From: an uncultured Alphaproteobacteria bacterium
GTDB lineage: Bacteria; Pseudomonadota; Alphaproteobacteria; Rickettsiales; CAIJLX01
Assembly: GCA_903821695.1 (NCBI GenBank)
Contig: CAIJLX010000022.1
Coordinates: 12,406 to 76,405, forward strand
Reading direction: 5' to 3'
DNA length: 64,000 nt
The notes under the pieces were generated by a model. That model was not told the origin of the DNA. It worked only from the letters and a program-made list of their open reading frames with translations, and did no database searches. Positions 35,539 to 39,523 of this stretch are shown in pieces. The translations under genes were made by a program, and so were the position numbers. The first letter of the stretch is position 1, and each line of letters starts with the position of its first letter.

Positions 35539-35850
35539 TCAACCCTTCATCACATTGATATCCTCAACCGCGATCGAGCCACGGTTGCGGAAATAGACGA
35601 CTAGAATTGCGAGGCCAATCGCAGCTTCTGCAGCAGCGACGGTAAGTATAAACATGGTAAAGATTTGTCCGACTACATCGCCCATATAAGCGGAGAAAGC
35701 GACGAAGTTGATGTTCACGGAGAGGAGCATTAATTCGATCGACATTAATAATGTGATTACGTTTTTACGGTTCAGGAAAATGCCGCAGACACCGATGGTA
35801 AACAGCAGCGAGGCGAGCACGAGATAATGTAGGAGCGTGATCTGCATCAT
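35539..35850 (-). CDS. nuoK: NADH-quinone oxidoreductase subunit K
   Basis: SIELML and [10 protein letters not shown], with both conserved Glu. Confidence 0.96.
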
Positions 35851-36461
35851 ATGCCCTTACCCGATTTTACTTTCACCATCGAGACCGAATCTGCCACATT
35901 GCGATGCACCTGTTTGCGGATATTTTGGCGGCGGACGCCTGGGCGATGGCGCAGTGTCAGCACGATTGCACCGATCATCGCCACCAGCAGAATGGCGCCC
36001 GAAATAATAAATGGGTATGCGTATTGCGTATATAACACATGGCCGATTGCCTCGGCGTTTGTTCCTTTTACGCCCGCAACAACTGGTGTTGGTTCAGCTG
36101 CAAATTTTACGGTGGAAGCTTGCAGGATTAAAAATAACTGAACGAACATGATTGCTGCAACGGCGCCACCGAAGGGGAGATAACGCAAGAAGCCGGCTTT
36201 GAGTTCGGCGAAATTAATATCGAGCATCATCACAACGAATAGGAACAACACTGCGACGGCGCCAACATAAACAATCACCAACGTCATCGCGAGATATTCG
36301 GCGCCTAGCAGAACGAACAGGCCAGCAGCGTTAAAGAAGCAGAAGATGAGGAATAGGATAGAATGCACGGGGTTTTTGGCGGAGACGACCATCACGCCAG
36401 AAAGAACAGATAAAAACGCAAAGACGTAAAATAGAAGGGGTATCAGCATCTTGTCTGACAT
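35847..36461 (-). CDS. nuoJ: NADH-quinone oxidoreductase subunit J
   Basis: [37 protein letters not shown]. Confidence 0.96.
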
Positions 36462-37406
36462 TCATACTGATTGAAGCTCACGAGGTCTAGGTAAATTTTC
36501 AAGCAGATGTTTCCGAATATATTCGGCCGCACGGGCGGCTTCATTCAGACCCAAATCGAAGGTGCGTTTTGGGTCAAATGCGCTCAATGGCCCCGCCTTT
36601 TCCGCCGCATAAAAGGAATGGTGCAATTGCTGATATTGGAAAAAACGACCTTCCGGCGCATAAATCCAGGTCGGCTTGCCGCTCGATACGGCTTCGGACA
36701 CCATGCGGGCGGAATCGCCTGTCACCACCACATGCTCAGCCAGTGACAACATTATCGCATAAGGGTTAGGATTAATGGCACGACGTTTAAAATCATAAAT
36801 AAAGTTGGGCTGCGGCAAATAATCAATCAATGCCTGCGAAATTTTCAGTGGTGTACGTGGGCTAGTCGTCGCGAGCACCGTTCCGCCTTGCGCCTTTAAG
36901 GTTTCGACAATAGCGATAATATCTTCTTCCTTGACGTCATCACCCACATGTACGCCACCAACCAATAGTGCGATCACTGGCGATTGCAGTTTGAGGCCCT
37001 CGAGGAACGGATATTTCCCTGTCAGAAAATCCGCCTTCGCCCGGTTGAGGCGATCTGGATTTACTTTATTAATATAGCCGGTGGTGAGGAATATATCGTC
37101 ATACCTTGGTAGCGGCTCATGGTTTGGAGCGATGACCAGGTCGAAGAAATCCAAATCCGGACCCGGATCCAAAATCGAAACCGTAGGCACTGCGCCTTGC
37201 AATAAATGTTTAAACGCAACGGCATGGGGTGCTGCAATAGCGCCACAGGAAAGAATCACATCAGGCTTTTGCAAATGGGTAAAAGATTGGAACCCTTCGC
37301 GTTCAATTTCGGCAACGCTGATGATTTGGATAGAGCCCAAATGCTCAGCGACAGCTTCAGCCATCACCGTACGGTGTGAATCATCTGAGATGATGAGGGT
37401 ATGCAT
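36462..37406 (-). CDS. ELM1/GtrOC1 (DUF1022)-family GT-B-fold protein
   Basis: I.DP.....FDLVIAP.HE, ALLVGG, TTS.RTP, NPY...L..A...VVTGDS..MVSEA..SGKP pattern. Confidence 0.8.
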   Translation of the reverse strand: MHTLIISDDSHRTVMAEAVAEHLGSIQIISVAEIEREGFQSFTHLQKPDVILSCGAIAAPHAVAFKHLLQGAVPTVSILDPGPDLDFFDLVIAPNHEPLPRYDDIFLTTGYINKVNPDRLNRAKADFLTGKYPFLEGLKLQSPVIALLVGGVHVGDDVKEEDIIAIVETLKAQGGTVLATTSPRTPLKISQALIDYLPQPNFIYDFKRRAINPNPYAIMLSLAEHVVVTGDSARMVSEAVSSGKPTWIYAPEGRFFQYQQLHHSFYAAEKAGPLSAFDPKRTFDLGLNEAARAAEYIRKHLLENLPRPRELQSV

Positions 37407-37888
37407 CAGCGGTACGGCGCATCCGCCGCCAGACGTCCGGCGATTTCGGTTTCCCAGCGCTCGCCATTGGCTAGCAGTTTGTTTTTATTATAGAGCAGTT
37501 CTTCATGCGTTTCGGTCGCATATTCAAAATTCGGCCCTTCCACAATGGCATCCACCGGGCATGCTTCCTCGCAGAACCCACAATAAATGCATTTGGTCAT
37601 ATCAATATCATAACGCGTGGTGCGGCGGCTGCCATCATCCCGCACTTCGGCTTCAATGGTGATCGCCTGCGCCGGGCAAATCGCCTCGCATAATTTACAA
37701 GCAATGCAACGCTCCTCACCATTCGCATAACGCCGCAGCGCATGTTCACCACGGAAACGAGGGCTCAATGGCCCCTTCTCATACGGATAATCAATCGTCA
37801 CCGGCCGCTTGAACATGTAGCGCAGCGTCAACGACATCCCGCTCAAAAGCTCAGTCAACAATAACGAACGTGCAAACTTATCGATCAT
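37406..37888 (-). CDS. nuoI: NADH-quinone oxidoreductase subunit I
   Basis: Two CxxCxxCxxxCP ferredoxin motifs; SPRFRGEH. Confidence 0.97.
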
Positions 37889-37897
37889 AGGTAAGTA

Positions 37898-37925
37898 GTT
37901 CTACAGAGAACAAAAAAATTTGCAA
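37898..37925 (-). promoter_or_regulatory. Putative sigma70 promoter of the nuoI-ELM1-nuoJKLMN operon
   Basis: Minus strand TTGCAA-N16-TAGAAC, with the ATG 9 nt later and no SD; immediately after an upstream terminator. Confidence 0.5.
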
Positions 37926-37931
37926 GAAGGC

Positions 37932-37970
37932 AAAAAAAGAGGAGGCAAACCCAATGGATATGCCTCCTCT
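37932..37970 (-). terminator. Intrinsic terminator closing the csrA islet
   Basis: Minus strand AGAGGAGGCA-N13-TGCCTCCTCT followed by a T-run. Confidence 0.85.
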
Positions 37971-37971
37971 C

Positions 37972-38073
37972 TTACTTGGAAAAACTAGAATCACGCTGAA
38001 GTGCGTTGGTATGTACGTGAAGAATAAATTTCTTCAACGTGATTCCGTTTCCTGATCTCGAGAAAATTACCAT
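37972..38073 (-). CDS. Putative 33-aa small ORF (MVIFSRSGNGITLKKFILHVHTNALQRDSSFSK)
   Basis: ATG 38073 has GAGGGA 9 nt upstream, is in frame with csrA, and stops just before the terminator. No recognisable homology. Confidence 0.25.
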   Translation of the reverse strand: MVIFSRSGNGITLKKFILHVHTNALQRDSSFSK

Positions 38074-38103
38074 CAACAGTAATCCCTCAAGACCAGCTTT
38101 TGT

Positions 38104-38325
38104 TCATTGATCACCAGCATGTTCCTCCAGCTTTAGATCAATATAGGTGATCGCCTGACCATCACCCAGCTCTTCATCTTCTCTGAGCTCTTCCCGGACG
38201 ATGTTCATATCCCTTGGTGCCTCAATACCTATTCTCACAGTATTGTGGTCGATTCTGACGATCGTCACCGTGACGTTCTGTCCGATCAAAATCTTTTCGC
38301 CAGGCTTTCGAGAAAGTACCAGCAT
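38104..38325 (-). CDS. csrA: Carbon storage regulator CsrA/RsmA family RNA-binding protein
   Basis: MLVLSRK.GE.I.IG....V.......VRIGIEAP....I.REEL plus an acidic tail; SD AAGGGGGA 7 nt upstream. Confidence 0.92.
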   Translation of the reverse strand: MLVLSRKPGEKILIGQNVTVTIVRIDHNTVRIGIEAPRDMNIVREELREDEELGDGQAITYIDLKLEEHAGDQ

Positions 38326-38441
38326 GGTACAATCCCCCTTATCTACCAGCTCCGCTGGTGTTATGGGAACTCAAGAGATGCGTGCAGTTCACATAACAAA
38401 TGTGAACTAATCCATTTATGCACTGCATCCCTTTCGTTCCC
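38326..38441 (-). promoter_or_regulatory. Structured GGA-rich RNA element upstream of csrA (leader or sRNA)
   Basis: 77-nt imperfect hairpin at 38365-38441, ACCAGC-GGA-GCTGGT hairpin at 38345-38359, and five GGA motifs including the SD. Confidence 0.55.
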
Positions 38442-38545
38442 GTAAAAGGCATTTTCAAGAAATTAGTAAGCAAAAAACCAATAAGAAACATTGTCATAAT
38501 ACCCAACCAATATGACAAAATGATGACAGCTAGCCTCAATAATCC

Positions 38546-38620
38546 CGTCATCCCGGCGGAGGCCGGGAGGGGATCCATCTTTCTGTCGGGGCCGTGGATC
38601 CCGGCCTCCGCCGGGATGGC
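38546..38620. repeat. CGTC-type REP-like palindrome pair (inverted dimer)
   Basis: CGTCATCCCGGCGGAGGCCGGGA(GGGG)ATCCA ... TGGATCCCGGCCTCCGCCGGGATGGC, directly downstream of the xerC stop. Confidence 0.8.
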
Positions 38621-38632
38621 TTGGGGAGGTTT

Positions 38633-39523
38633 TTAGGCCCTCGGAAACAATTTTTGGTAGTTTTCGGCCATTTGTAGGGGGGTTAGGTGGGTGTAGATTT
38701 GGGTGGTGGAGAGGCTGGCGTGGCCTAGGCATTCTTGGATCACCTTTAAATCGGCACCGTTGCTCAGCATATGGGTCGCGAAAGAGTGCCTTAGGGCATG
38801 GGGGGTAAGGTGTTCGGGGAGTTGTAGCGTTTTTCGCAATTTTTGAATATTTCTTTGAAATACAGCAGGTTGCAGGCGTTTTCCTCGGCTGCCGATGAAT
38901 AAAGCAGGCTCTAGCGGATAGGGGCGGATATCTAGATAATCTTTAATGGCGGCTCGGGCTTCCTCCAAAAACGGGACTAAACGCTCCTTATTTCCCTTGC
39001 CAATGACCCGTAACATGGCGCCTTTGCTATCGCTGATATTGAGGGCTAGGGCCTCGGAAATACGCAATCCGGCGGCATAAAGTAGGGTAAAAAGGGCCAA
39101 ATCCCGCCGTGCCATCCAGCCTTCGTCCCATATTTCAAGAATTCCAGCCCGGGATTCCTTGGCTTGGCCGATGGAAATGGCTCGTGGCAACCTTTTAGGC
39201 CGTTTCGGGCTTTTGAGTGCCTTAACGGCCGGGTTTTGGATGTCATAGCGGCGAGCTAGAAAGGTAAAGAAACTGCGGAGAGTAGCCAAGGCCCTAGCGT
39301 TTGAGCCGATGGCGAGTTTTTCGGTGACTCGGGCACTCATCCAACTGCGCAGATCGGTGACACTTAATTTTTTGAGAGCTTCGAGGGTGAGGCTCGCCTC
39401 GTTATGTTTCTGCCAAAAGGCTACAAAATGGCCCATATCATAGCGATAATTGCCGATCGTGCGTGGAGAGCAGCGTTTTTCCTGTCTTAAATAATTTAGC
39501 CACTCTTCCATTGCGTCCTGCAT
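38633..39523 (-). CDS. xerC: Tyrosine recombinase XerC
   Basis: GLRISE, GKGNKER, PHALRHSFATH and LGHASLSTTQIY: catalytic R-K-H-R-H-Y intact. Start moved to ATG 39523. Confidence 0.9.
   Translation of the reverse strand: MQDAMEEWLNYLRQEKRCSPRTIGNYRYDMGHFVAFWQKHNEASLTLEALKKLSVTDLRSWMSARVTEKLAIGSNARALATLRSFFTFLARRYDIQNPAVKALKSPKRPKRLPRAISIGQAKESRAGILEIWDEGWMARRDLALFTLLYAAGLRISEALALNISDSKGAMLRVIGKGNKERLVPFLEEARAAIKDYLDIRPYPLEPALFIGSRGKRLQPAVFQRNIQKLRKTLQLPEHLTPHALRHSFATHMLSNGADLKVIQECLGHASLSTTQIYTHLTPLQMAENYQKLFPRA

Follow-up and report, generated by a model that had tools for sequence, protein, structure and literature searches.

The csrA gene considered here lies on the minus strand of a 64,000-nucleotide stretch of DNA (the window) from an uncultured alphaproteobacterium of the order Rickettsiales, at a site between xerC and nuoI; its neighbours are xerC, ribF, lspA, a DUF3035 gene, nuoI, an ELM1-family gene and nuoJKL, which likewise point to an alphaproteobacterial genome. 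Upstream of the coding sequence is a leader of two hairpins (HP1 and HP2) and a Shine-Dalgarno (SD) sequence, and this leader is very probably a genuine, conserved and structured cis-regulatory RNA. We found that it exposes GGA triplets, the motif recognised by CsrA, while its SD sequence and start codon are predicted to be largely enclosed in base pairs. The leader consists of the following features, numbered by position in the window.

38449-38443, minus strand: anti-SD tract CCUUUUA, the 5' arm of helix P0, predicted by RNAalifold and by single-sequence folds to pair with UAAGGGG of the SD region
38441-38365, minus strand: HP1, a 77-nucleotide hairpin (helices P1 to P4) interrupted by tandem GA mismatches, a single bulged A and, on the 5' strand, a side loop of 11 nucleotides, from the ViennaRNA fold and covariation
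38441-38436 / 38370-38365, minus strand: helix P1, GGGAAC/GTTCCC
38435-34 and 38372-71, minus strand: tandem GA/GA mismatches
38433-25 / 38381-73, minus strand: HP1 helix AAGGGATGC/GCATCTCTT, with one G-U pair
38423-19 / 38386-82, minus strand: HP1 helix GTGCA/TGCAC
38418-38408, minus strand: HP1 side loop TAAATGGATTA (as RNA, UAAAUGGAUUA), with its GGA at 38413-38411
38407-00 / 38394-87, minus strand: HP1 helix GTTCACAT/ATGTGAAC
38359-38345, minus strand: HP2, ACCAGC-GGA-GCUGGU, with its loop GGA at 38353-38351, from sequence and covariation
38341-38333, minus strand: SD region UAAGGGGGA, the 3' arm of P0, containing the SD AAGGGGGA (38340-38333) and a GGA at 38335-38333
38336-38310, minus strand: predicted start-codon hairpin GUACCA-UGC-UGGUAC (38330-38316), extended by GGGA/UCUC, the AUG spanning the stem top and the loop
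38325-38323, minus strand: start codon ATG

A first-pass annotation, made from the letters of the sequence, had described the elements of the large hairpin, HP2 and the SD; all are present on the minus strand at these positions, and the helices are reproduced by ViennaRNA. Two features escaped that annotation, the CCUUUU tract that sequesters the SD and the hairpin around the start codon.

Fold and covariation of the leader

The ViennaRNA minimum free energy of the leader is -50 kcal/mol, against -29.8 +/- 3.2 kcal/mol for 200 dinucleotide shuffles, none of which was as good (z = -6.4; the fold strength ranged from z = -6.4 to -6.6). In the side loop of HP1, UAA and UUA are able to close a mini-stem of three A-U pairs that presents AUGGA. 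HP1 is followed by AUAACACC and HP2 by AGAUAAGG; no U-tract comes after HP2, which is therefore not a terminator, and a terminator scan of the minus strand returned no terminator-like site in the leader or between it and the coding sequence. Searches against Rfam 15, of 37800-38900 at E <= 10 and of the whole window at the gathering score, gave no relevant family and nothing at 38323-38450, and the leader hairpin has no second copy within the window. An open reading frame of 79 codons (38578-38339) overlaps the leader; a coding role for it was rejected, since single-nucleotide indels break the frame in one relative (L215) and it is absent from another (L092), and so we take the leader region to be non-coding.

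Metagenome contigs of relatives were retrieved by exact look-ups with NuoI variants and with the nearest CsrA homologue. They carry, at the same site, the following.

L081: identical to the window
L215: csrA of 73 amino acids, with 78% amino-acid identity; nuoI with 94% nucleotide identity
L084-L087: csrA of 57 amino acids
L092, L091 and L272: csrA of 64 amino acids (L272 merely duplicates L092)
L089: csrA of 58 amino acids
L093: csrA of 66 amino acids
L269: csrA of 71 amino acids
L090: a further csrA allele, on a partial contig
L094: an empty site
L270: a decayed cassette, with csrA deleted

Two kinds of leader are found among them. The window, L215, L084 and L092 make up the type-1 set and L089, L093 and L269 the type-2 set, giving seven cassettes in all. 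From a plain MAFFT alignment of the four type-1 leaders RNAalifold recovered the same helices, with compensatory changes in 11 of 34 predicted pairs. In the alignment fitted to a covariance model, R1, standard pairs filled 92.3% of the cells, against 36-54% with the 3' partners slid by one to three columns. The first-pass annotation had made covariation in homologous leaders one of the tests of its proposal, and covariation is what we found: compensatory double changes affect 14 of 39 pairs (2/6 in P1, 5/13 in P2 and P3 together, 4/8 in P4 and 3/6 in HP2), and none of 500 column shuffles reached the observed values. R1 scores the leaders at 94-143 bits on the sense strand and at 16-17 bits on the antisense strand; because the scores are strand-specific and the helices include G-U pairs (one of them in P2 of the window), the leader is an RNA element and not a DNA palindrome.

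The primary sequence is conserved too. Between cassettes the promoter and leader are 65-74% identical whereas the coding sequence is 54-61% identical, and the leaders of the window and L215 are approximately 7-9% different at a synonymous divergence (dS) of 0.28-0.36 in csrA and nuoI. The leader, more conserved than the coding sequence downstream of it, is under constraint. A search with R1 upstream of 80 planctomycete csrA genes and beside four viral csrA genes found no copy of the type-1 leader; together with the lack of an Rfam family, this indicates that the fold is undescribed and, as far as the sequences searched allow us to judge, so far confined to a narrow clade.

In the 170 nucleotides upstream of the planctomycete csrA genes (L001-L080) a different leader is conserved, which is also rich in GGA (one example reads GUUGCCACAGGGAAGCAUCAGGCAC ... 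AGGGGU ahead of the AUG), and a TTGAYGACA box stands further upstream. Leaders that bind their own product are, on this evidence, probably common in this subfamily of CsrA.

GGA motifs and the predicted enclosure of the translation start

The five GGA triplets in about 115 nucleotides reported by the first-pass annotation were counted correctly, and the figure overstates what could be available to CsrA. Two of the five are part of the stems P1 and P2, and relatives have not kept them. The other three, which are situated within unpaired sequence or beside it, are conserved in the side loop and the SD of all four type-1 leaders and in the HP2 loop of three; their predicted unpaired probability is 1.0 in the side loop and the HP2 loop and 0.21 in the SD. 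The side-loop motif reads AAUGGAUUAG in three leaders (window, L215, L084) and AUAGGAUUUG in L092, where the mini-stem is AAA/UUU instead, and the helices that flank it covary. The side loop is a candidate high-affinity CsrA site; it matches 8 of 12 positions of RUACARGGAUGU, the CsrA consensus obtained by SELEX (systematic evolution of ligands by exponential enrichment). The GGA of HP2 and that of the SD are approximately 17 nucleotides apart, a spacing that would suit bridging by one CsrA dimer, and each of the seven cassettes has an SD that includes GGA. Pairing between the loops, of AAUGGAU in the HP1 side loop with AUCCAUU in the loop of the terminator downstream of csrA, was also considered; it is possible in the window and L215 only, is missing from L084 and L092, and is probably due to chance.

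The anti-SD tract CCTTTTAC (also given as CCUUUUAC) stands just 5' of HP1 and is invariant in the four type-1 leaders. Its pairing with the SD region is predicted by RNAalifold and in each single-sequence fold of a leader, and it closes a junction that holds HP1 and HP2; both arms of P0 are invariant, so that covariation in this helix is impossible. On average the nucleotides of the SD region have a predicted unpaired probability of 0.29 in the window and of 0.04-0.44 across the cassettes. The start region, from -18 to +21, folds at -12.7 kcal/mol in the window and at -11.2 to -15.2 kcal/mol across all seven cassettes, in differing registers, while the same stretch of 84 planctomycete and viral csrA genes has a mean of -5.75 +/- 1.6 and a minimum of -8.9 kcal/mol. 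Across the cassettes, sequence changes in the spacer are matched by synonymous choices in codons 2-4. With the SD mostly paired and the start codon in a hairpin, the message would be structurally locked.

The type-2 leader is not homologous to type 1 and has the same layout. Its long hairpin has an invariant inner stem and an outer stem that changes in sequence and yet for the most part still pairs; it has an invariant side loop, AAGGAG(C)UU, and an invariant hexaloop, CWGGAY, which is how CsrA sites classically look. There is a CU-rich tract, paired with AGAAAGG, and a short hairpin and a GGA-rich SD follow. Between L089 and L093 the type-2 hairpin and the SD are near-identical islands in an otherwise diverged cassette. 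That two non-homologous leaders share one design argues for the display of GGA as the property under selection.

The csrA cassette in its genomic setting

The leader is best explained as one part of a self-contained unit of about 600 bp that comprises a promoter box, the 5' leader, csrA, a structured 3' untranslated region (3' UTR) and a terminator. In the relatives the same order is seen, from conserved upstream box through leader, csrA and 3' UTR to terminator, before nuoI and usually behind xerC. In the window its remaining parts are these.

38490-38529, minus strand: upstream box CTGTCATC-N4-TTGTCA-N17-GACAAT, with no other promoter-like site on the strand between 37800 and 38900
38325-38104, minus strand: csrA coding sequence, 73 amino acids with an acidic C-terminal tail and a Pfam CsrA match
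38103-37932, minus strand: 3' UTR, with an intrinsic terminator at about 37972-37932

In the upstream box, CTGTCATC and TTGTMA recur in every one of the seven related cassettes and with both types of leader. The box is probably a promoter of the sigma-70 type that serves the cassette, and the transcription start is predicted to be near 38483. We also considered the box as a recombination site of the dif or attC type and rejected this on inspection: it fits neither the 11-6-11 layout of dif nor the R''/R' consensus of attC, and it lacks such a pattern of conservation. When a degenerate pattern of the box, CTGTCATCRWWYTGTMAYAWT, was used to scan metagenomes widely, the matches listed were chance ones only, none with a downstream csrA or with similarity to the leader; a scan of viral contigs with the pattern CCTTTTACRRGAACGA returned 48 matches. 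At the other end of the cassette the 3' UTR forms three long hairpins (-72.2 kcal/mol, z = -8.3). The 218 nucleotides from the csrA stop to the nuoI start, which include the 3' UTR and the nuoI promoter, differ at five positions between the window and L215, where the dS of the flanking genes is approximately 0.3. In other cassettes the 3' UTR is wholly different, and a 33-codon open reading frame inside it is not conserved across cassettes. A role for the 3' UTR as a GGA sponge was rejected, its GGA triplets being located in stems.

The csrA product is a canonical member of its family. It matches Pfam PF02599 (CsrA) over residues 1-50 of a 53-position profile with E = 3e-23 and 82 bits, against a cut-off of 27, and its residues 1-51 give a gapless alignment with both E. 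coli CsrA (1Y00) and RsmE (2JPP), MLVLSRK... corresponding to MLILTRR... of 1Y00 and IVREE to VHREE, with R44 and E46 retained. The RNA-binding residues of strands beta1 and beta5, L2, L4, R6, R44 and E46 in E. coli numbering, are all present. The nearest proteins are those of Planctomycetaceae (Schlesneria), with 92-94% amino-acid identity over residues 1-47/49 and 77-80% nucleotide identity, and CsrA relatives are also encoded on four viral contigs. No fliW gene was seen near csrA. The acidic tail (residues 47-73; 38104-38187, minus strand) has a ratio of nonsynonymous to synonymous divergence (dN/dS) of approximately 1.2 (0.22/0.19) between the window and L215, and the RNA-binding core one of approximately 0.1; selection on the tail appears from these values to be relaxed or diversifying. 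On a 905-nucleotide Logan contig (L216:499-864) a 73-residue relative of CsrA is followed by an open reading frame of 121 codons, apparently containing two degenerate CsrA-like segments with a weak Pfam CsrA hit, which may be a tandem-domain CsrA.

The csrA alleles of the clade differ greatly. Their core domains are 40-66% identical to one another, which makes them as different among themselves as from E. coli CsrA. In L089 (2380-3003) and L093 (340-916), nuoI differs by one nucleotide in 483 and the flanks are identical, while the two csrA genes have 57% nucleotide identity and core amino-acid identity of approximately 54%. Judged from these sequences, the cassette is exchanged among very close relatives at one chromosomal site, seemingly by way of the conserved flanks; no mobility genes are visible within its 600 bp or so, and the site is a fixed one. 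Three more distant relatives reached through the NuoI look-up (L271, L273 and L274) have nuoH and nuoI contiguous, with no csrA. Lineages of this sort can be without a chromosomal csrA, as PMC7366521 states with reference to Sinorhizobium meliloti, and csrA alleles are documented on plasmids and phages (PMC7366521); the csrA of the window appears to have been acquired horizontally by a lineage that normally has none.

A tyrosine recombinase gene, xerC, is directly upstream of the cassette, and adjoins ribF and lspA even in L094, where the site is empty. Between xerC and the cassette, at 38549-38618, there is a perfect GC-rich inverted repeat of 20 bp (CATCCCGGCGGAGGCCGGGA / TCCCGGCCTCCGCCGGGATG) with a 30-nucleotide spacer, approximately 110 nucleotides upstream of the leader hairpin, resembling a repetitive extragenic palindromic (REP) element; different GC-rich palindromes occupy the same place in L084 and L089, as expected of REP-type elements, and Rfam microRNA hits on the repeat of the window are spurious and at chance level. 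The complex I operon of the clade is split between nuoH and nuoI, with the ELM1-family gene between nuoI and nuoJ (35539-37888 in the window, minus strand), and a separate promoter, TTGCAA-N17-TAGAAC, serves nuoI, whose leader is almost absent. In the more distant L271 the order nuoH-nuoI-ELM1-nuoJ is contiguous; L273 and L274 have no ELM1 gene.

By a crude call, an SD-like motif (GGAG, GAGG, AGGA or GGGG, at most 20 nucleotides upstream of the first ATG) precedes approximately 13 of 55 long open reading frames in the whole window. At that frequency an SD as strong as the one in the csrA cassette, with its GGA, is atypical for the genome, and the pool of possible CsrA targets is perhaps small.

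Proposed control of csrA through its leader

On balance we think it probable that the leader acts in cis and that CsrA represses its own translation through the displayed GGA motifs and the SD, on a messenger RNA that is already structurally locked. Transcription would start upstream of HP1; the side loop of HP1 would present AUGGA and the loop of HP2 a GGA, the CCUUUU tract would pair with AAGGGG of the SD, and a further hairpin would enclose the start codon. Dimers of CsrA, the presumed binding factor, would then occupy the exposed GGA motifs together with the GGA of the SD and repress translation of the csrA message, which amounts to negative autoregulation in cis. As the ribosome-binding site would be poorly accessible from the outset, the output of CsrA would be low and buffered. 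We favour autorepression because the RNA-binding residues of the protein are kept, because the exposed GGA motifs are conserved and because the unrelated type-2 leader has the same layout. The first-pass annotation had proposed an undescribed, structured, Csr-binding leader that acts in cis: the absence of an Rfam match, the covariation and the conserved GGA motifs bear out the undescribed structured leader, and binding of CsrA is what the sequence suggests.

Several observations weigh against this account. The covariation rests on few lineages, namely four distinct type-1 and three type-2 sequences. Five GGA triplets in 116 nucleotides place the leader in the top 1.2% of all windows of that length in the 64-kb stretch, where the mean is 1.36, and this enrichment taken alone is modest and not compelling. 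The main conserved GGA of HP1 is located in an asymmetric internal loop and not in the classical apical hexaloop, and the HP2 loop, which is GGA in the window and L215 and CGGAGU in L084, is UGA in L092, which thus has no GGA there. The transcription start is a predicted one; four cassettes have a good -10 hexamer in the promoter and three a poor one, and read-through from xerC may be an alternative source of the leader. With the SD and AUG predicted to be sequestered already, repression may not need CsrA, which could even have a positive effect.

Two other explanations were weighed. In the one, structure alone locks translation and CsrA has no part in it: a horizontally acquired csrA would be kept near silent until released by temperature, in the manner of a fourU element, by RNase processing or by the kinetics of co-transcriptional folding, and the GGA triplets would persist as part of the SD or as an unrelated motif. 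The low accessibility of the SD region (mean unpaired probability 0.04-0.44), the start-codon hairpin of -11 to -15 kcal/mol in all seven cassettes, against -8.9 at the strongest in the 84 csrA genes compared, the invariance of CCTTTTAC and the dispensability of the HP2 loop GGA in L092 all fit such a lock. It leaves unexplained why an 11-nucleotide single-stranded AAUGGAUUAG is retained while every flanking helix covaries, and why the unrelated type-2 leader also shows GGA in a side loop and an invariant hexaloop; for these reasons we think it unlikely as the whole explanation, and the two mechanisms are not mutually exclusive. In the other, CsrA or another trans-acting factor, be it a protein or a small RNA, opens the lock, and csrA is under positive, switch-like autoregulation. 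CsrA is reported to activate some of its targets by remodelling structures that sequester the SD, and an activator would make sense at a ribosome-binding site that is intrinsically closed. The diverse mechanisms of CsrA action are reviewed in PMC7652899. One of the conserved GGA motifs is within the SD, however, where binding normally blocks ribosomes, the cassette contains no visible candidate for a small RNA or partner gene, and we found no precedent for positive translational autoregulation of csrA, all of which makes activation improbable.

The first-pass annotation had also offered the alternative that the leader is processed into a decoy that titrates CsrA in trans, as do CsrB and RsmZ. 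A stable, structured RNA with two GGA motifs shown in loops is the kind of molecule from which such a decoy might be released, by processing or by premature termination. It has only three exposed GGA motifs, when known sponges have many more, and the HP2 motif is lost to UGA in L092; there is neither a terminator-like site nor a U-tract between HP2 and the SD, no Csr or Rsm small-RNA family was matched in Rfam even at E <= 10, and in the 3' UTR the GGA triplets are hidden by pairing within stems. The proposal of a decoy is thus very improbable. Scarcely credible is an element that works as DNA, whether a REP or miniature inverted-repeat transposable element (MITE), an operator palindrome or a recombination site for the adjacent XerC-family recombinase. 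The position of the cassette directly downstream of a tyrosine recombinase gene, its replacement or absence in close relatives and the REP-like GC-rich palindrome 110 nucleotides upstream would all suit such an element. The pairing of the leader depends on G-U pairs and its model is strongly strand-specific, it is single-copy within the window, its arms do not fit the attC R''/R' or the dif consensus, and xerC adjoins ribF and lspA even where the site is empty.

A more speculative reading concerns the cassette as a whole, which might be an exchangeable regulator module that varies within the population and not a housekeeping gene. In that case the CsrA variants would be interchangeable and subject to diversifying selection, arising for instance from conflict with phages or a host cell, and the conserved, locked leader would be the control element common to all of them; binding of CsrA to the displayed GGA loops could act as a switch and not as a simple brake. 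What speaks for it is the contrast between nuoI genes one nucleotide in 483 apart and csrA cores of approximately 54% identity, together with the empty and decayed sites, the dN/dS of approximately 1.2 in the tail, and the conservation of leader hairpin, SD lock and 3' UTR. We regard this reading as improbable.

Comparison with known systems shows both likenesses and differences. The decoys CsrB, CsrC, RsmX, RsmY and RsmZ resemble the leader as structured RNAs that display GGA in loops, but each is transcribed independently, ends at a terminator of its own and has far more GGA sites, features that the leader lacks. The classical target of CsrA and RsmE is A/U-N-GGA-N in a short stem-loop. Stem-loop targets such as hcnA and RsmZ (2JPP) likewise present GGA in small loops on short stems, and the type-2 leader with its CWGGAY hexaloop comes close to them; in type 1, on the other hand, the best-conserved GGA is in an 11-nucleotide asymmetric internal loop and the second is in a three-nucleotide loop that needs to open. 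The fourU RNA thermometers share with it a U-rich tract, here CCUUUU, that pairs with a purine-rich SD through U-A and U-G pairs, but in the leader this pairing closes a large junction with two further hairpins, and the start codon has a hairpin of its own. The csrA of E. coli is translationally autorepressed by CsrA through four leader sites, with one overlapping the SD (Yakhnin et al. 2011, as summarised in PMC7652899). The leader described here is similar in having several GGA motifs, one overlapping the SD, a canonical CsrA and what would be negative translational feedback. It differs in lacking sequence homology, in having three exposed GGA motifs that are predicted where E. coli has four mapped sites, and in its covariation-supported multi-helix fold, its three-way arrangement closed by the anti-SD helix and its start-codon hairpin. 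As for the gene, the csrA and rsm alleles of plasmids, phages and the integrative and conjugative elements of Legionella (PMC7366521) are also stand-alone, apparently horizontally acquired and different among close relatives; the cassette is unlike them in that no mobility genes are visible inside it and that it keeps to one fixed chromosomal site.

The regulatory principle is thus already known, and it is the fold and the lineage that are new; of the side observations, the more unusual is that near-identical strains exchange cassettes. To our knowledge, autoregulation of csrA through GGA sites in its own leader has been established only in E. coli. Here a csrA that appears to have been acquired by a lineage normally without a Csr system carries an elaborate, conserved leader that combines the display of GGA with predicted sequestration of the SD and start codon. 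The leader is a candidate for a new cis-regulatory family with a defined RNA motif, for which a covariance model is feasible, and the exchange of alleles at a single chromosomal site bears on how global post-transcriptional regulators spread horizontally.

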